DNA from: an uncultured Ignavibacteriales bacterium
GTDB taxonomy: Bacteria > Bacteroidota > Ignavibacteria > Ignavibacteriales > Ignavibacteriaceae
Assembly (NCBI GenBank): GCA_963739985.1
Contig: CAVUCE010000015.1
Span: 6,990-70,989, forward strand
DNA length: 64,000 bases
Reading direction: 5' to 3'
The notes below the pieces were generated by a model that saw nothing but the letters and a program-made list of their open reading frames with translations, did not search any database and was not told where the DNA came from. Both the position numbers and the translations under genes were made by a program. This document shows positions 27,194 through 35,519 of the stretch, one piece after another. Numbering within the stretch: the first letter of the stretch is position 1; each line of letters opens with the position of its first letter.

Positions 27194-28657
27194 ATGCAAA
27201 ACGAAAAAAAACAATTAAATCAACCTATCATCTTATTAGCGCTTACAATAATATTTTTAATCGCCCTTTCATTTTTACCTTCGAACATGAAAATATTTGG
27301 TTATACAATAAAACCTGTTGATTTATTTATGGATATAAAACCGGATTCATTATTGAGCAGCAATTATAATATTCAACCAAATAATCATTCCATTCAAAAA
27401 TATTATGATGCAAGTTCACTTGATAAATCAAACGATTTAGGTGTAAACAAAGATGCATTATTAGCCAGCGTTAATTTTAATCTTCTGAGTAAAATTTTTA
27501 ATAACTCTTCCGCAGCAAAAAATAACAAATCAATTGATGCATCGACTTTAGAAAATTATATCGAGGAAAGAATTTCCGGTAATACCGATCAAATGAAGTA
27601 TTTTTATGATGCTGTTAGAAATGCGGGAAATAAAAAAATTAGAATTGCGCATTTTGGTGATTCTGAAATTGAAGGTGATCTTATAACCGCTGAGTTAAGA
27701 AAAAAATTGCAAAGCAAATATGGTGGCGAGGGAGTCGGATATTTGTCTATTACATCTCAAGATATAACATTTAGAACCACAACAAAACAAAGTTTTTCTG
27801 ATAACTGGAAAACTTATTCAGTATTAGATGGCGGCGGTGATAAGGTTTCTCCTGGAATAAGCGGTTATGTTGCTGTTCCACAAGGAGTGAGCTGGGTGAA
27901 ATATCAAGCAACCGGTTTTAACAATACTTCCAGATATTTTACAACCGTTAGAGTTTTTTACAGTAATTCTGATGGGTCATCAATCAAATATTCCTTTGAT
28001 GGTTCAAAAGAACAAACTGCATCTCTTTTACCCGGAAAATCTGTTCAAGAACTGATTTTGAAAGCTCCTGGTAAAGCAAATTCAATTAAAATTACCACAA
28101 CCAAAGCAAATCAAGCAAATTTTTATGGCGTTAGCCTTGAAGGCGGCGATGGAGTTTATGCTGACAATTTTCCATGGAGGGGAAATACAGGAGTTGGTTT
28201 TAGAGATATTGATAAGTCTGTTATGAAGGATTTTAATAAATATCTTAATTATAAATTATTGGTTTTAAGTTTTGGCGGAAATATGGTAGGTAATAATTCT
28301 ACCGATTTTTCCTGGTATGAAAATCAAATGGTTAAAATTATAAATAATCTAAAACAAGAATTTCCGCAGACAAGCATTTTGTTGGTTTCAGTTGGTGATA
28401 AAAGTATCAAACGGGGAAGTCGCTTTATTACTGATCCAACTATTTCCGCATTGTTAGATGTTCAGAAGAGTATTGTACAAAAAACCGGTATAGCTTTTTG
28501 GAATTTATTTAATTCGATGGGTGGCAAGAATTCGATGGGAACATGGGTGGATGCAAACCCACCATTAGCATTTAAAGATTACACACATTACACACTTCCT
28601 GGTGCTGATAAAATCGGTGACATGTTAAGTGAAGCTTTAATTAATGAAATTAGATAA
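27194..28657 (+). CDS. membrane-anchored SGNH/GDSL-fold protein (DltD / AlgX-AlgJ-like acyl-transfer component)
   Basis: N-terminal TM segment. SGNH block I IRIAHFGDSEIEGD. It is a paralog of 43862-45124 and lies first in an operon with the carrier protein and the MBOAT. Confidence 0.65.
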   Translation: MQNEKKQLNQPIILLALTIIFLIALSFLPSNMKIFGYTIKPVDLFMDIKPDSLLSSNYNIQPNNHSIQKYYDASSLDKSNDLGVNKDALLASVNFNLLSKIFNNSSAAKNNKSIDASTLENYIEERISGNTDQMKYFYDAVRNAGNKKIRIAHFGDSEIEGDLITAELRKKLQSKYGGEGVGYLSITSQDITFRTTTKQSFSDNWKTYSVLDGGGDKVSPGISGYVAVPQGVSWVKYQATGFNNTSRYFTTVRVFYSNSDGSSIKYSFDGSKEQTASLLPGKSVQELILKAPGKANSIKITTTKANQANFYGVSLEGGDGVYADNFPWRGNTGVGFRDIDKSVMKDFNKYLNYKLLVLSFGGNMVGNNSTDFSWYENQMVKIINNLKQEFPQTSILLVSVGDKSIKRGSRFITDPTISALLDVQKSIVQKTGIAFWNLFNSMGGKNSMGTWVDANPPLAFKDYTHYTLPGADKIGDMLSEALINEIR

Positions 28658-28684
28658 TTACTATAATTTAAGGAGACTTTCAGT

Positions 28685-28921
28685 ATGATTTCGGATAAAT
28701 TAAAATCGGTTATTCTAAAGGAATTGGAAATCGAAAATTTTGACTTCCAGGATGCTACTACTGCCGATCAAGTTCCAAACTGGGACTCATTAACCCACCT
28801 AAATGTAATTCTGGCGATTGAAAAAGAATATCAATTAAAATTTAAAGGTCTCGAAATTTTAAAGATTAAAAATATTGGGGAATTACAACAGTTAATTGAT
28901 AAAAAACTCTCTACTAACTAA
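28685..28921 (+). CDS. acyl/aminoacyl carrier protein (DltC-like)
   Basis: 78 aa with phosphopantetheine-attachment context VPNWDSLTHLNVILAIEKEY (DSL serine). Confidence 0.8.
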   Translation: MISDKLKSVILKELEIENFDFQDATTADQVPNWDSLTHLNVILAIEKEYQLKFKGLEILKIKNIGELQQLIDKKLSTN

Positions 28922-28941
28922 ACTGAAACAGGAATTCCCGA

Positions 28942-30441
28942 ATGTTTTACTGGATTGATACCCAAAGATTGCTGGATTTGTTTGTTTACCAAAAGCATGA
29001 TCCGGTGGTTTTTACTACTAGCTACTTCCTATTCTTTTTTTTCATTGTATTAGTAGTTTATAGATTATTTGCTTCTAAGAAAAATTTAAGAATTTATTCA
29101 CTTATAATATTTTCGTTATTCTTTTACTATAAAGCTACCGGTTATTATTTCTTTATTTTGTTTTTTACAACCTTATTAAACTTTTATATCGGAAATTGGA
29201 TTGGTGGTACAGAGTCCCAATCAAAACGAAAATGGTTGCTCATAATTTCCATTGTCGTAAACATAGCAGTATTATTTTACTTTAAGTATACCAATTTCTT
29301 TATAGGTATATTAAATGATATTAGTGTCGGACAGTTAAATCCGTTAGATATTTTTGTCCCGGTAGGCATATCTTTTTATACATTCAAAGCTATGTCCTAT
29401 GTATTGGATATCTATTTTGAAACTATGGAGCCTGTAAAAAGTTTAAGAGATTTCACATTATTCGTATCTTTTTTCCCAAACATACTTGCCGGACCAATTG
29501 ATAGAGCTTCAGAATTTCTTCCACAGATAGAACAAGAGTACAAGGTTACCAAACGTGATGTAAGTATGGCTGTCTTTTTAATTATTGTTGGTTTATTCAA
29601 AAAAACTGTGATCGCTGATTATATTGGATTAAACTTTGTTGACAGAATTTTTGACAGCCCTTTGCGATACACCGGAGTTGAAAATTTGATGGCGGCTTAT
29701 GGTTACGCTCTACAACTTTGGTGTGATTTTTCCGGTTATACAGATATGGCTTTAGGCGTTGGACTTTTGCTTGGATTTAAATTAAGAGAGAACTTTAATT
29801 ATCCCTATAAAGCAACCAGTATTGCCGATTTTTGGCGGCGCTGGCATATGTCTCTTTCTACATGGTTATTAGACTATTTGTTCAAACCTCTGCAAATGAA
29901 ATTTAGAAATCTAAGAAATTTTGGAAACGCTTTAGCTCTTTTTATAACATTCACTGTTATTGGTATTTGGCATGGTGCTAATTGGACTTTCATTCTTTTC
30001 GGTGTTATTCATGGTACATATTTAGCCACGTCAATTTTCACCAAAAAATTAAGGAAGAAATTTTGTGATAAAACAGGTTTAACAAATACCAAATTTTTAA
30101 AAGTATTTCAAATATTTTTCACTTTCCAACTTGTAGTATTAGCAGATATTTTCTTTAGAGCAGCAAGTGTTGGAACTGCTCTAGATATGTTTAAGCAGAT
30201 TTTTACATTCTTCCATTCTGAAGTTTTCATACAGTTTGTTAAGGGATATACCGAGATTTTTGGGTTAGTAATTTTAGGATATGTATTACACTATTTGCCG
30301 GAGTCGGTGGCTAAAAAAACACAAGAGTTGCTATTCAAAACACCGGTTGTAGTTTTAGCGGTTCTTTTAACCCTAATGATTTGGTTAACGATACAATTCA
30401 AATTTGCTGACTTACAACCATTTCTATATTTTCAGTTTTAA
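28942..30441 (+). CDS. MBOAT-family membrane O-acyltransferase (DltB/AlgI-like)
   Basis: 499 aa, polytopic, with FWRRWHMSLSTWLLDYLF and the conserved His region IGIWHGANW. Confidence 0.88.
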   Translation: MFYWIDTQRLLDLFVYQKHDPVVFTTSYFLFFFFIVLVVYRLFASKKNLRIYSLIIFSLFFYYKATGYYFFILFFTTLLNFYIGNWIGGTESQSKRKWLLIISIVVNIAVLFYFKYTNFFIGILNDISVGQLNPLDIFVPVGISFYTFKAMSYVLDIYFETMEPVKSLRDFTLFVSFFPNILAGPIDRASEFLPQIEQEYKVTKRDVSMAVFLIIVGLFKKTVIADYIGLNFVDRIFDSPLRYTGVENLMAAYGYALQLWCDFSGYTDMALGVGLLLGFKLRENFNYPYKATSIADFWRRWHMSLSTWLLDYLFKPLQMKFRNLRNFGNALALFITFTVIGIWHGANWTFILFGVIHGTYLATSIFTKKLRKKFCDKTGLTNTKFLKVFQIFFTFQLVVLADIFFRAASVGTALDMFKQIFTFFHSEVFIQFVKGYTEIFGLVILGYVLHYLPESVAKKTQELLFKTPVVVLAVLLTLMIWLTIQFKFADLQPFLYFQF

Positions 30442-30445
30442 TAAA

Positions 30446-30469
30446 AAATGCCGGTATAAGCCGGCATTT
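30446..30469. terminator. bidirectional terminator hairpin between convergent operons
   Basis: aaatgccgg / tataag / ccggcattt is a perfect 9-bp stem. An A-run lies upstream and aatttttaa downstream. Confidence 0.65.
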
Positions 30470-30496
30470 AATTTTTAATTTAAATCTTCACTTTAG

Positions 30497-31444
30497 TTAA
30501 TCTAAAATATCGCCTTCGCGCACTCCTAACGTTTTTGCGATTTCATTTATTTCAATACCTTCCATTTCTTCAGTCATAACATCTTCAATATTTAAGATTG
30601 CATCCGCACAAGCAATTTGAAATGTTTCATCATCAATTTTCATGATCTTACCGACTGTAGAATGATCATCATTTGGACCAACATAAGAGACCATGTTAAC
30701 AACTACTTCACCATTCCCGGTTTTCAGTTTAGGGTAAACAAAAGTATTTTCAAATGGAATAAAATTTAATCCTCTTACCATTTGATCAATTTTTTCATAA
30801 TTCCATGAAAAAGAGAGAATACCATTATTTTCCGGATAATCTTTTAATGAGTAGTAAGAAGACATTCCGGATTGAGGTTGTCTTTTATAATTATCATGTA
30901 ATATATTTTCGAATGTTTCTTTAAATAAAGCTAAGCCCTCCATTATTGAAAGACTCATTAACCTTCCGGCCGTTGTATCTTCATCAATAGGAAATTTTCT
31001 TTGAGCTATTACATCGCCTGTATCAATTCCTAAGTCAATAAAGTGCCATGTAACACCATGCTCTTTTTCACCATTAATAATTACCCACGACGGGATATTG
31101 ACGCCGCCGTACAGAGGCAGCGGAGCATTATGAAAATTTATAGTGCCGGTTTTAGGAATTGCAATAAGATCATCTTTAATAATTCTATAATTATTTATGC
31201 TGAACATTATATCGGGTTTATGCCTTTTTACAAACTCAACTGCTTCCGGTGAATTTATCTTTGTTATACCTTTTACGTTAATTCCCGCGTCTTCAAATGT
31301 CTTCATTATCGAATCAGAAGGATTATCTTTCTTCGGATCATATATAAAAAAAGCGATTTTTGCGTCTTCATATTTCTGCATATACTTGATGCAATCGACG
31401 GCCATTTTACCGTTGCCTATTACACCAAAAATTTTTTCTGCCAT
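30497..31444 (-). CDS. formyltransferase-like protein (Fmt/ArnA-N-like fold)
   Basis: 315 aa. INFHNAPLPLYGG matches the NxH...(S)LLPxxRG catalytic loop and IDTGDVI matches the catalytic Asp region. There is a C-terminal extra domain, as in Fmt. It starts 10 nt after the adenylating-enzyme gene. Confidence 0.7.
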   Translation of the reverse strand: MAEKIFGVIGNGKMAVDCIKYMQKYEDAKIAFFIYDPKKDNPSDSIMKTFEDAGINVKGITKINSPEAVEFVKRHKPDIMFSINNYRIIKDDLIAIPKTGTINFHNAPLPLYGGVNIPSWVIINGEKEHGVTWHFIDLGIDTGDVIAQRKFPIDEDTTAGRLMSLSIMEGLALFKETFENILHDNYKRQPQSGMSSYYSLKDYPENNGILSFSWNYEKIDQMVRGLNFIPFENTFVYPKLKTGNGEVVVNMVSYVGPNDDHSTVGKIMKIDDETFQIACADAILNIEDVMTEEMEGIEINEIAKTLGVREGDILD

Positions 31445-31453
31445 TTTTTGCCT

Positions 31454-32956
31454 TTAGTTATTTATTTGATTTGCCAAAGCTTTTCGATCAACTTTTCCGT
31501 TAACATTAAGTGGAAAAGTTGAAACAGAAAGAATCTTAGACGGAATCATATAATTAGGAAGTTTTGTCTTCAAGTAGCTCTCAATGTCATTCGATTTTCC
31601 ATCGAAATTTTCAACAAAAAGATAAATCTGATTATTACCGATTTTATTTTTATGAGCAACTGCAGCTACATTACTCAGTTGAGTGAACTCTCGAGTGTGA
31701 TGTTCGATTTCACTTAATTCCACTCTAAATCCTTGAATTTTAACTTGGTGATCAACTCTTCCACAATACATAAAATCATTATCCTCATCCAGGTAAGCAA
31801 GGTCTCCGGTTCTATATAATGTTGTCTCTTTCCCGTTCACTTCTTTTACAAAGAATGCTTGTTTATTCTTTTCAGGATTTTTCCAATAACCGGGAGTAAG
31901 CTGTGCACCGTAAAGACAAAGTTCGCCTCTATCACCTTTCGGTAAAATATCGCCGTTTTCGTTTACTACAACGGCTCCCATATTTTCCATCGGTTTCCCT
32001 ATTGCAACTATGCTGTTGAAATTTTTATTCTTCGCTTTGTCTCTGCTCAAATCATATGTTAAGCAAAATATGGTTGCTTCCGTAGGACCGTAAACATTTT
32101 GAACAAGAGCATTCGGTACGCATTCCATCCATTCATGAACTATATCTTCGTATAACGCTTCACCGCAGAACATAGAATAGCGCATTCTAGGCAACTTAAT
32201 CTCTTCAAAATAGGGGCGTAAATAAGCCATAATAGAAGGAACCATAAGCGCTATAGTCAATTCTTGTTCTTCTAATAAACTATAAACATAAGTATATTTT
32301 ATCCCTCCGGGAGGAACTGTATAAACGCAAGCGCCTTTGCATAAAGGAGCAATGTAGGACATTAATGATAAATCAAATGTCATGTCAAACATTTGCAAGC
32401 ATCTATCATTTTCATTTATTTCATAACCAAGTTTATAGAAAGCATCAATAAAAGAAATTAAATTTTTTCTAGTAAGTGGAACTCCTTTAGGAACACCGGT
32501 ACTGCCTGATGTAAAAAGTATATAAGCAATTTCATTTTCATCTATTTTCGGATCGTTCAGATTTATTTCAGCTTTTTGTAATGATGTTGTATCAATAAAT
32601 CTTACTTGATTTTTATCAACAGCTTCTTTAATCTCTTTTGAATCTTTGCTGTCTAAAATCATATTGATTCCGGATTGCTCAATAACAGCTAAATTTCTAT
32701 CAATCGGATTTTCAGGATTAATTGGTACGAATCCAAGTCCAGCGTATAGTATTCCAAATACAGTAGAATATGTTTCAATATCATCATTTGTAATAAAGCC
32801 TATTAATTTTTGTTCTTCTTCATTATTCTTTTCTAAATAATCTCTAATATTGGAAACTATTTGAGCTAATTCTGTATAACTATAATATTTTCCATCAATA
32901 AAAAAAGCATTTTTCTCTGGGAATTTCTGGACTGAATCCTGAATTTGATCGAGCAT
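31454..32956 (-). CDS. stand-alone amino-acid-adenylating enzyme (DltA / NRPS A-domain-like)
   Basis: Adenylation core motifs are present: ILFTSGSTGVPKGV, FDLSL (with Asp), YGPTE, YRTGDLA, GRVDHQVKIQGFRVELSEIE and NGKVDRKAL. Confidence 0.85.
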   Translation of the reverse strand: MLDQIQDSVQKFPEKNAFFIDGKYYSYTELAQIVSNIRDYLEKNNEEEQKLIGFITNDDIETYSTVFGILYAGLGFVPINPENPIDRNLAVIEQSGINMILDSKDSKEIKEAVDKNQVRFIDTTSLQKAEINLNDPKIDENEIAYILFTSGSTGVPKGVPLTRKNLISFIDAFYKLGYEINENDRCLQMFDMTFDLSLMSYIAPLCKGACVYTVPPGGIKYTYVYSLLEEQELTIALMVPSIMAYLRPYFEEIKLPRMRYSMFCGEALYEDIVHEWMECVPNALVQNVYGPTEATIFCLTYDLSRDKAKNKNFNSIVAIGKPMENMGAVVVNENGDILPKGDRGELCLYGAQLTPGYWKNPEKNKQAFFVKEVNGKETTLYRTGDLAYLDEDNDFMYCGRVDHQVKIQGFRVELSEIEHHTREFTQLSNVAAVAHKNKIGNNQIYLFVENFDGKSNDIESYLKTKLPNYMIPSKILSVSTFPLNVNGKVDRKALANQINN

Positions 32957-33186: not shown

Positions 33187-34365
33187 ATGAAGAAAGTTTT
33201 TTTCTTAGTTCCTTTATTCTTTTTCGGTACAATTTTCCCACAAAGAGAAATAAGTATGAATCAAATACAAGATATAGTGAATAATTATAAAATTGAGTAT
33301 GCGCCGGATAAACGAACTGCGCTTTTTAATATTGAGGTTGAAGGCAACGAAGGTAACTGGATATTAAATGGAGAAACTAATCTAAAAAATGCAGAAGAGA
33401 AATTAATTGAAGAGTTAAAAGCTAAAAATATTAAGTTTCAGAATAATATTGATGTTTTACCTTCTAAAAGTCTAGGTGATAAAGTTTATGCAATCATTGA
33501 TGTTTCTTCCTCGAGTATGAGGACACATCCCAAACATGCTGCTGAAATGGCTACACAGGCTTTATTGGGTTGTTATGTTGAGGTTTTTAAAAAATCAGAA
33601 AGCTGGTATTTAGTTCAAACTCCGGACAAATATATTTCCTGGGTAGAGGGTTCCAATATTACCAGGATGAATGAATCCGAGGCTGCTGCATGGCAGAACG
33701 CTGATAAGGTAATTTATACTAATGATTACGGATTTTCATTTGATGCACCGGAAGAAGATGCAAATCACGTATCAGATTTGGTAGTCGGTAACTTGCTTAA
33801 AAAATTAGGTACCGAAAATAATTTTGTCAAAGTTGGCTATCCTGATGGAAGAATAGCTTATATTCCAGAAACCTCATGCCAGGATTATGGTAAATGGTTG
33901 AAAGATCGTAAATTAAATTCAGATAATATTATAAAAGCGGCAAAACAATTTATGGGTATTCCATATCTATGGGGTGGTACTTCAGCAAAAGCTTTAGATT
34001 GCAGCGGATTTACTAGAACGGTTTTTTTCTTAAATGGTGTTTATTTACCTCGTGATGCTTCACAACAAGTTCATGTAGGGAATCCTGTTGATACAAAAAA
34101 TGGTTTTGATAAATTGGAGCCCGGAGATTTGCTATTCTTTGGTACAAAGGCAACCGATTCTACTAAAGAAAAAGTTACTCATGTGGGAATATACATTGGA
34201 AACGACGAATTCATACATGAATCAGGCAAAGTTCAAATTAATAGCTTTAATAAAAATGCAGAGAATTTTAGTTCTTACAGATTGCATCAATTTCTTAGAG
34301 CGAAGAGAGTTTTGAACTCAGTAGGAAAAAATGGTGTTGTATCATTAGAAAATGTCAAATACTAA
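33187..34365 (+). CDS. NlpC/P60 cysteine peptidase with N-terminal SH3-like domains (YkfC-like)
   Basis: Signal peptide, catalytic LDCSGFTRTVF and THVGIYIGNDEFIHES. Confidence 0.8.
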   Translation: MKKVFFLVPLFFFGTIFPQREISMNQIQDIVNNYKIEYAPDKRTALFNIEVEGNEGNWILNGETNLKNAEEKLIEELKAKNIKFQNNIDVLPSKSLGDKVYAIIDVSSSSMRTHPKHAAEMATQALLGCYVEVFKKSESWYLVQTPDKYISWVEGSNITRMNESEAAAWQNADKVIYTNDYGFSFDAPEEDANHVSDLVVGNLLKKLGTENNFVKVGYPDGRIAYIPETSCQDYGKWLKDRKLNSDNIIKAAKQFMGIPYLWGGTSAKALDCSGFTRTVFFLNGVYLPRDASQQVHVGNPVDTKNGFDKLEPGDLLFFGTKATDSTKEKVTHVGIYIGNDEFIHESGKVQINSFNKNAENFSSYRLHQFLRAKRVLNSVGKNGVVSLENVKY

Positions 34366-34493
34366 AAATATATATTAGGGGTTTATAAAAGGTACGTTGT
34401 TAAAATGATATAATTTTTGGGATGCGGCTTTATAAAAATGTAGCATCCCGATTCAAATCTTTTTTAGAATAAATTAACTGGATCAATCTTAAA

Positions 34494-35519
34494 ATGAGCG
34501 GAAAACTAAAATTATCTTATAAACCATACACGTTAGAGTTGAAACACGTTTTTACTGTAGCAACTAATTCAAGATCAACAACACCAATTGTTTTAACTGA
34601 AATAGAATATGACGGAGTTGTTGGATATGGAGAGGCGTCGATGCCTCCTTATCTGGGAGAATCACACGAGACAGTGTTAAAGTTTTTATCCAAAGTTGAT
34701 CTATCCAAATACGATAATGTTTTCGAACTGGATAATATATTATCGGATATTGATAAAATTGAACCCGGAAATAATGCTGCAAAAGCATCATTGGACATTG
34801 CTTTACATGATCTCATCGGTAAGTTGATGGGGCAGTCGTGGTATAACATCTGGGGAATTGATAAAGCAAAAACACCTTATACTTCATTTACAATTGGAAT
34901 TGACACAGCTGAAGTTGTAAAGAAAAAAGTTAAAGAAGCGGATGAATTCAAAGTTTTAAAAGTTAAACTCGGTCGAGAAAACGATAAAGAAATGATAGAA
35001 ACCATCCGTGCAGCAACTGACCGTCCTTTGTCAGTAGATGCTAACCAAGGCTGGAAGGATAAGCATTTAGCTTTGGATATGATACATTGGTTGAATGAGA
35101 AGAATGTTTTATTTATAGAACAACCGATGCCCAAAGAACAAGTAGATGATATGGCGTGGTTAACTGAAAATAGTCCACTGCCTACAATTGCAGATGAGGC
35201 AGTTAGAAGATTAGCCGATGTGCCTTCTGCAAAAGGAGTTTACACCGGAATTAACATAAAATTGATGAAATGTACCGGAATGCGGGAAGCTCATAAAATG
35301 ATAATTTTAGCTCGCGGATTAGGAATGAAGGTTATGTTAGGATGTATGACGGAAACCTCGTGTGCAATTTCAGCAGCTGCACAATTATCACCCTGGGTTG
35401 ATTGGGCTGATCTTGACGGCGCTTTATTGATAAGTAACGATGTTTATGAAGGAACAAAAATTGTAAATGGAAAAGTGGAGTTGAGCGATTTACCTGGTAT
35501 TGGAATTAAGAAATTGTGA
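34494..35519 (+). CDS. dipeptide epimerase (L-Ala-D/L-Glu epimerase-like, enolase superfamily)
   Basis: KVLKVKLG, SVDANQGW, LFIEQP and IADEA metal/acid-base positions. It is paired with the NlpC/P60 gene, as in the B. subtilis ykfB/ykfC pair. Confidence 0.8.
   Translation: MSGKLKLSYKPYTLELKHVFTVATNSRSTTPIVLTEIEYDGVVGYGEASMPPYLGESHETVLKFLSKVDLSKYDNVFELDNILSDIDKIEPGNNAAKASLDIALHDLIGKLMGQSWYNIWGIDKAKTPYTSFTIGIDTAEVVKKKVKEADEFKVLKVKLGRENDKEMIETIRAATDRPLSVDANQGWKDKHLALDMIHWLNEKNVLFIEQPMPKEQVDDMAWLTENSPLPTIADEAVRRLADVPSAKGVYTGINIKLMKCTGMREAHKMIILARGLGMKVMLGCMTETSCAISAAAQLSPWVDWADLDGALLISNDVYEGTKIVNGKVELSDLPGIGIKKL

Follow-up and report, generated by a model that had tools for sequence, protein, structure and literature searches.

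The textbook example of surface-charge tuning by a carrier-bound amino acid is D-alanylation, as carried out by the Dlt system. Formylation (F) domains have been described in review only as N-terminal domains of nonribosomal peptide synthetase (NRPS) proteins (PMC10510592), and our search of the literature found no formyltransferase in Dlt-like systems, in carrier-dependent glycan acylation, or in stand-alone adenylation/polysaccharide systems. Here we describe a gene that appears to join these two chemistries. It lies in a stretch of 64,000 nucleotides of contig CAVUCE010000015.1 from an uncultured Ignavibacteriales bacterium (hereafter the window), at positions 30497..31444 of the minus strand, and encodes a stand-alone formyltransferase of 315 aa directly downstream of a DltA-like adenylating enzyme. 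With a rough probability of 0.58, and reading from sequence comparisons, we propose that the protein is a free-standing N-formyltransferase resembling NRPS F domains, which would act in trans on an aminoacyl-S-carrier and feed the esterification of a glycan by an MBOAT (membrane-bound O-acyltransferase) and an SGNH protein.

A formyltransferase with an intact active site

The protein starts at an ATG codon and matches Formyl_trans_N (PF00551) with 73.6 bits and Formyl_trans_C (PF02911) with 35 bits. Both characteristic motifs, INFHNAPLPLYGG and IDTGDVI, are present, and they carry the catalytic residues Asn103, His105 and Asp141. These three residues are invariant across 35 aligned family members that share 34-61% identity with the window protein, an invariance that, as judged from the alignment, is far above chance. 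An AlphaFold2 model built on the same 35-member alignment (mean predicted local distance difference test score, pLDDT, of 95.2) has the two parts that define the superfamily, a Rossmann-like N-terminal domain with the Asn-x-His...Asp arrangement and a C-terminal beta-barrel domain. The model superposes over both subdomains on the N-terminal domain of ArnA, its top structural match (template modelling, TM, score of 0.82), and on Fmt (TM about 0.8). The open reading frame (ORF), the Pfam matches, the alignment and the structure model thus bear out the initial annotation, which had seen here an Fmt-like protein of 315 aa with an intact N-x-H...D arrangement. That annotation gave no strand. It placed the start codon 10 nt after the gene for the adenylating enzyme, which agrees with what we find: the TAA stop codon of that gene ends at 31454 and the ATG begins at 31444, leaving a spacer of 9 nt (AGGCAAAAA, 5'-3' on the coding strand; 31445..31453, minus strand).

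The protein is not the housekeeping methionyl-tRNA formyltransferase. With the fmt equivalog model (TIGR00460) it reaches 94.8 bits where the cut-off is 201.5, and a true fmt gene (279.8 bits) is located on another contig of the genome (G000:C6:423112-424005) with a def homologue directly upstream. Because of this sub-cut-off score and the def-fmt pair elsewhere, we reject identity with fmt; neither of the two outcomes that, by the initial annotation, would have spoken against its reading (grouping with true Fmt proteins and being the sole fmt of the genome) is found. The score against the NCBIfam ArnA model was 114 bits. A viral or phage origin was considered as well and rejected, since a search of viral contigs found no relatives of the protein.

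Linkage to loaders and carriers across bacteria

A word-indexed search recovered 63 relatives of the formyltransferase (34-61% identity), and HMMER, run exhaustively over 1.84 billion representatives, returned 165 matches below 1e-30, about 100 of which are stand-alone proteins of roughly 315 aa. Eighty loci from species-representative genomes were analyzed by scoring each ORF against the proteins of the window, a carrier hidden Markov model and an aminoacyl-tRNA synthetase-like (aaRS-like) query. The orthologue set comprised 33 dereplicated loci with scores of at least 160 bits and at least 3 kb of sequence on both flanks. An amino-acid loader was encoded within 6 kb in 30 of the 33 (26 of adenylation type and 4 aaRS-like), often overlapping the formyltransferase gene or within 30 nt of it, and a carrier of roughly 80 aa was present in 29. 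A DegT-type sugar aminotransferase occurred anywhere in the 20-kb locus in 7 of the 33, and no DegT/ArnB homologue was found in the 64-kb window. The loci span Bacteroidota, Verrucomicrobiota, Planctomycetota, Alpha- and Gammaproteobacteria, Desulfobacterota-type Geobacter, Acidobacteriota, Nitrospinota and Bdellovibrionota-type bacteria, together with two archaeal metagenome-assembled genomes (MAGs).

The association holds when the loader is exchanged. Loci of Chthoniobacter contain the formyltransferase, a 79-aa PP-binding carrier and a 397-aa tRNA-synt_2b protein, and have no AMP-binding enzyme. The top solved match of the tRNA-synt_2b protein is amino acid-[acyl-carrier-protein] ligase 1 (Bll0957; 80.7 bits). 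This is a non-orthologous displacement of the adenylating enzyme by an aaRS-like ligase, with formyltransferase and carrier retained. In two further loci (L021 and L026), an aaRS-like loader occurs together with both a carrier and an MBOAT. The protein P0172 (841 aa) is a fusion of adenylation (A) and F parts in the same order as the genes of the window operon. A Vibrio cluster that is not a glycan locus and holds ketosynthase (KS), ketoreductase (KR) and ATP-grasp genes still pairs the formyltransferase with a loader and a carrier. The initial annotation had suggested that the F, A and carrier logic of NRPS initiation modules operates here with stand-alone proteins; the frequencies of loader and carrier, the replacement of the loader, the P0172 fusion and the kinship with NRPS F domains described below all support this suggestion. 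Loader displacement, A-F fusion and the phylogenetic neighborhood of NRPS F domains point, independently of one another, to an aminoacyl-carrier as the partner of the enzyme.

Several of these loci have features of their own. The two Chthoniobacter clusters (L091:3047-7047 and L092:9418-13385) share the order hexapeptide-repeat (LbH) acyltransferase, formyltransferase, 79-aa carrier, aaRS-like ligase and a conserved 302-aa protein that has no Pfam match, and the cluster also holds DegT and NeuB-type sugar genes. The two archaeal MAGs, one of them assigned to Nanoarchaeia, carry an overlapping pair of adenylating enzyme and formyltransferase genes (L028:8392-10930 and L030:2764-5161) with a shared specificity code, DLFMITMVEK; these pairs could reflect horizontal transfer or a binning artefact. 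In the cultured Stieleria maiorica Mal15 (L008:8001-14466), a 43-aa ORF lies directly before the MBOAT gene, in a DltX-like position, and a gene with the fold of the pyridoxal phosphate (PLP)-dependent ornithine/diaminopimelate/arginine (Orn/DAP/Arg) decarboxylases follows the carrier gene. The code of the Stieleria adenylating enzyme, DYSATSMFRK, hints at a different amino acid.

Phylogenetic position

Among the HMMER matches, many proteins of about 1200-4500 aa appear from 139 bits downwards, together with shorter ones. The large proteins tested with Pfam have the architecture F-A-PCP-TE (PCP, peptidyl carrier protein; TE, thioesterase) or F-A-PCP with a luciferase-like insert in the A domain, and both formyltransferase subdomains are present in them. 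Single-module F-A-PCP proteins with a luciferase-like monooxygenase inside the A domain were observed in Acidobacteria and Rhodothermales (L052:1449-6572 and L087:3315-7928). In both trees that we reconstructed, the stand-alone family and the F domains embedded in NRPSs neighbor each other, with E. coli Fmt, the Fmt of the same genome and ArnA outside. The NRPS F set formed one clade in the first tree (Shimodaira-Hasegawa-like approximate likelihood ratio test, SH-aLRT, 97), and the F part of P0172 was placed among the stand-alone proteins in the second, a maximum-likelihood tree.

Comparison with solved structures at the level of sequence gave WbkC (84 bits), QdtF (71), ArnA (70.6) and Fmt (45) as the leading matches, followed more weakly by the hydrolase domains of 10-formyltetrahydrofolate dehydrogenase (FDH; 44 bits), the LgrA F domain (27) and HoxX/HypX (22). 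The alignment with WbkC (a chain of 261 aa) spans only residues 61-232 of the window protein and leaves the C-terminal domain uncovered. The LgrA F domain was compared by bit scores only and stood outside the tree set. In the phylogenetic comparison proposed in the initial annotation, Fmt and ArnA fall outside and NRPS F domains are the nearest group; the position of WbkC shifts between the trees. The linear gramicidin synthetase LgrA, which had been offered as the only well-known F-A-PCP precedent, proved to be neither alone nor close, since many F-A-PCP(-TE) proteins exist and its F domain is distant.

The two convergent operons of the window

The adenylating enzyme that precedes the formyltransferase (500 aa; 31454..32956, minus strand) matches the AMP-binding family with 214 bits and ends in TAA. 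The two genes make up one tightly packed operon, and their translation would be coupled. Against the NCBIfam amino-acid adenylation model the enzyme scores 317.2 bits, marginally under the cut-off of 317.4, and against DltA models 295-306 bits, also below the cut-offs (295 against 559.85). Its top solved match is the second A domain of LgrA, which activates glycine (233 bits), with DltA next (200 bits).

Three genes on the plus strand converge on this operon across a bidirectional intrinsic terminator (30446..30469) that has a GC-rich stem of 10 bp and T tracts on each strand. They encode a membrane-anchored SGNH/GDSL-like protein (487 aa; 27194..28657), a carrier protein (78 aa; 28685..28921) and a DltB-like MBOAT (499 aa; 28942..30441). 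The phosphopantetheine serine of the carrier lies in the motif WDS35L, and among 49 partner carriers over 80% retain W-D-S. The MBOAT contains the motif WRRWHMSL, whose histidine we take to be the conserved MBOAT histidine, and scores 200 bits against the LTA_dltB model (cut-off 375). The SGNH protein has GDS and DxxH elements and a weak match to Lipase_GDSL_2 (25.3 bits); its position resembles that of DltD, AlgJ or PatB, and it is likely the extracytoplasmic transferase. The four core components of Dlt (adenylating enzyme, carrier with a phosphopantetheine serine, MBOAT and SGNH-like protein) are all encoded within 27194-32956, with DltA and DltB scores that both remain below the equivalog level. 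Beside the operon of the adenylating enzyme, at 33187-35519, lie a divergent NlpC/P60-SH3 peptidase gene and an L-Ala-D/L-Glu epimerase-like (MR_MLE) gene. These form a pair for the recycling of peptidoglycan peptides, which could double as a source of a D- or L-amino acid.

Amino acid specificity and the order of steps

The ten specificity positions of the adenylating enzyme were mapped by alignment to E. coli EntF. The same mapping returned DVWHFSLVDK for EntF, the published serine code of that enzyme, which validates the procedure. The code of the window enzyme is DLMLMCVIFK, which includes Asp235 and Lys517; these two residues are retained in all 26 partner adenylating enzymes. Since they are kept throughout, the enzymes would bind a free alpha-amine, and formylation would therefore follow activation and loading. 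The remaining positions (L, M, L, M, C, V, I and F) form a small, hydrophobic pocket. This pocket and the glycine-activating LgrA domain as top solved match lead us to expect that the amino acid is probably glycine or alanine, with no preference between the two. We assume that the code shares the Cys301 position with DltA and differs from it elsewhere. Codes vary by lineage (DVQVITFIYK, DLFCTCQCAK and DYSATSMFRK, among others), and this variation suggests that the formyltransferase family serves several amino acids.

Proposed mechanism and rival explanations

In the mechanism that we favor, the adenylating enzyme would activate a small neutral alpha-amino acid and attach it to the phosphopantetheine arm of the carrier protein of 78 aa. 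With N10-formyltetrahydrofolate as donor, the formyltransferase would then add a formyl group, at its Asn103/His105/Asp141 site, to the free alpha-amine of this tethered amino acid. The MBOAT would move the uncharged N-formyl-aminoacyl group across the inner membrane, and the membrane-anchored SGNH protein would join it in ester linkage to a hydroxyl group on an extracytoplasmic glycan, possibly an exopolysaccharide. The formyl group would be kept in the final product, which, as the initial annotation argued, would carry no charge and so differ from D-alanyl esters.

A number of observations weigh against this proposal. A subgroup from Flavobacteriia (Chryseobacterium and Crocinitomicaceae) has the formyltransferase with neither loader nor carrier nearby, and it may act on a different substrate. 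In the nearest relative (about 56-69% identity across the three pieces; L046:10001-10938), the formyltransferase is split over frames 2, 3 and 1, which may represent a pseudogene, dispensable in that organism, or a long-read assembly error. An MBOAT is encoded in only 9 of the 33 orthologue loci, so the export step proposed for the window is not a conserved part of the system, and the step would need a DltB-like MBOAT that accepts an N-acylated aminoacyl group. Finally, the closest solved structure by sequence is that of a sugar N-formyltransferase, WbkC, and the WbkC fragment is phylogenetically unstable, falling inside the family in the first tree and with the Fmt and ArnA references in the second. 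Two side observations concern the loci just named. The Chryseobacterium and Crocinitomicaceae members (L045:8628-10921 and L039-L041; 163-177 bits) lie directly downstream of a plug-protein gene of the type IX secretion system (T9SS). The L046 locus, from a Bacteroidetes MAG, has the same convergent layout as the window; two frameshifts are implied in its formyltransferase gene, and the genes around it, for the adenylating enzyme, the MBOAT, the carrier and the SGNH protein, are intact.

The similarity to WbkC raises the alternative that the enzyme is a nucleotide-sugar N-formyltransferase of the WbkC/ArnA/FdtF type, acting on an amino sugar of the same glycan that its Dlt-like neighbors decorate. 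The leading solved matches (WbkC, QdtF and ArnA) are sugar enzymes, the N-terminal domain of ArnA is the top structural match, most loci are polysaccharide clusters, and one tree places WbkC within the family. However, the sugar aminotransferase that should accompany such an enzyme is missing from the window and from most orthologue loci, whereas loader and carrier accompany the formyltransferase even in the Vibrio KS/KR/ATP-grasp cluster. Fusions of the A-F and F-A-PCP types are known from this study, exchange of the loader leaves the formyltransferase and its carrier in place, and a stand-alone clade that excludes WbkC, as in the second tree, was not rejected by the approximately unbiased (AU) test (p = 0.46). 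We therefore regard an amino sugar substrate as unlikely. A distinctly improbable variant keeps the reaction on the carrier and makes the formyl group a transient protecting group, which would make the aminoacyl thioester or ester more stable, or pull the pathway onward, and would be removed outside the cell to leave a cationic aminoacyl ester as in D-alanylation. ArnA and ArnD, encoded by adjacent genes in E. coli, provide an established precedent for formylation followed by deformylation, and the existence of formyltransferase-free clusters with a similar pocket code (see below) means that the end product could be the same. On the other hand, neither the searched loci nor the window yielded an ArnD-like deformylase, a result that leaves room for an unrelated deformylase family; homologues of peptide deformylase were seen only beside the housekeeping fmt and in one other locus.

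Timing and target of the reaction offer two more possibilities. PvdF and CchA formylate N5-hydroxyornithine in siderophore pathways, and stand-alone Fmt-like enzymes beside NRPS genes are accordingly established; by the same logic the window enzyme could act ahead of adenylation and formylate the free amino acid or an amine of its side chain. We consider this very doubtful because Asp235, the residue that binds a free alpha-amino group, is retained in all partner adenylating enzymes, because the window pocket has neither room nor a partner for a side-chain amine, and because the fused relatives are F-A-PCP proteins, an order typical of on-carrier formylation. Formyltransferase-fold domains that formylate the thiol of pantetheine are also known. 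Direct transfer of a formyl group to the phosphopantetheine thiol of the carrier, in the manner of 10-formyltetrahydrofolate dehydrogenase or HypX, would lead through the MBOAT to O-formylation of the glycan, and FDH hydrolase domains and HoxX/HypX are indeed among the distant matches. This scenario is hardly credible, however, for it would leave the near-universal amino-acid loader without a role, and the similarity to FDH and HypX is far below that to NRPS F domains.

Formylation as a probably optional step and the routes of exit

Formylation of the carrier-bound amino acid, the reading that we prefer, looks like an optional tailoring step. In an even sample of 301 genomes across the phylum, an orthologue of the formyltransferase occurs in the genome of the window and in no other. 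Two others (G127 and G293) encode orthologues of the DltA-like enzyme (50% and 44% identity) in contiguous clusters of adenylating enzyme, carrier, MBOAT and a protein of roughly 300 aa that have no formyltransferase, and one of these clusters has the similar pocket DLQLLCVIYK. It is because related Dlt-like clusters with a similar code do without the gene that we see formylation as tailoring of a carrier-bound intermediate.

The routes by which the amino acid leaves the carrier differ among loci. The window, loci of the Chitinophaga type, Stieleria and some Alphaproteobacteria have an MBOAT with an SGNH protein or an unassigned partner. Most other loci have no MBOAT, and an LbH acyltransferase is frequently encoded alongside instead. 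Known LbH enzymes, LpxA and LpxD among them, take acyl-carrier donors, and we infer that the LbH versions of the cassette N-acylate amino sugars. In Chitinophaga-type loci (L005:4217-11566), two MBOAT genes, each followed by a partner gene for roughly 280-300 aa, flank a single set of genes for adenylating enzyme, formyltransferase and carrier, an arrangement suggestive of one carrier that supplies two acceptor sites or polymers. In Geobacter sp. AOG1, a cultured isolate (L025:6289-12767), the cluster encodes an adenylating enzyme, a carrier, a radical SAM/SPASM protein, an LbH transferase, the formyltransferase and an unusual protein in which LbH is fused to a PP-binding carrier and a thioesterase.

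We tentatively extend the proposal beyond the window. The formyltransferase may be the formylating part of a widespread, undescribed carrier-dependent system, with loader, carrier and stand-alone F enzyme at its core, that adds N-formyl-amino acids to the surface glycans of bacteria through interchangeable exits, O-esters made by MBOAT and SGNH proteins outside the membrane and N-acylation of amino sugars by LbH enzymes in the cytoplasm. N-Formyl-aminoacyl substituents of glycans do exist in nature, as shown by the O2 antigen of Vibrio anguillarum, on which an N-formyl-L-alanyl group is reported (PMC10059132), and the system, if real, would supply the missing genetics for substituents of this kind. 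The Vibrio locus of our own set (L047) was considered as the source of the O2 group and rejected, as it is a KS/KR/ATP-grasp/MatE cluster and not an O-antigen locus. The proposal would suggest that diderm and environmental bacteria of many phyla use Dlt logic together with in-trans formylation. The product would be a neutral N-acyl-aminoacyl substituent that should exceed a free aminoacyl ester in chemical stability. F chemistry of the NRPS type would be seen as the work of a free-standing enzyme of glycan tailoring, candidate genes would be at hand for the N-formyl-aminoacyl groups of O-antigen chemistry, and the variation of loader (adenylating enzyme or aaRS-like ligase) and exit (MBOAT or LbH) around a constant pair of formyltransferase and carrier would be an example of modular pathway evolution.

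Comparison with known systems

Sugar N-formyltransferases (WbkC, the N-terminal domain of ArnA, FdtF/QdtF and WlaRD) are the top solved matches of the window protein and share with it the catalytic triad and presumably the N10-formyltetrahydrofolate donor. Its conserved partners, however, are a loader and a carrier, and the window contains no sugar aminotransferase. Carrier-dependent aminoacylation outside NRPSs is represented by the Bll0957-type amino acid:[carrier protein] ligases, which take the place of the adenylating enzyme in the Chthoniobacter cassette, and by AlmEFG, which transfers glycine to Vibrio lipid A. To our knowledge, neither of these systems as described has a formyltransferase part, and AlmG is a lipid A acyltransferase, unlike the MBOAT of the window cassette.

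The DltXABCD system of Firmicutes resembles the window locus in its stand-alone adenylating enzyme, its carrier with the serine in a DSL motif, its MBOAT and its SGNH-type partner. The differences are as clear. All window scores are below the equivalog cut-offs, the genes are arranged in two convergent operons, and there is an additional formyltransferase that canonical dlt operons do not have. The predicted product is uncharged, and the acceptor is probably an exopolysaccharide and not teichoic acid.

The F domains of NRPSs, such as that of LgrA, have the formyltransferase fold, the Asn/His/Asp site and the tie to an adenylating enzyme and a phosphopantetheinyl carrier in common with the window protein, and of its non-orthologous relatives, F domains embedded in NRPSs stand nearest to it (up to 139 bits). 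The LgrA F domain itself is reported to have about 193 residues (PMC10510592) and matches with 27 bits, whereas the window protein also matches Formyl_trans_C. Rather than being fused upstream of A and PCP domains, the window protein is a separate polypeptide of 315 aa, and it is predicted to feed the acylation of a glycan by MBOAT and SGNH proteins in place of a condensation domain.

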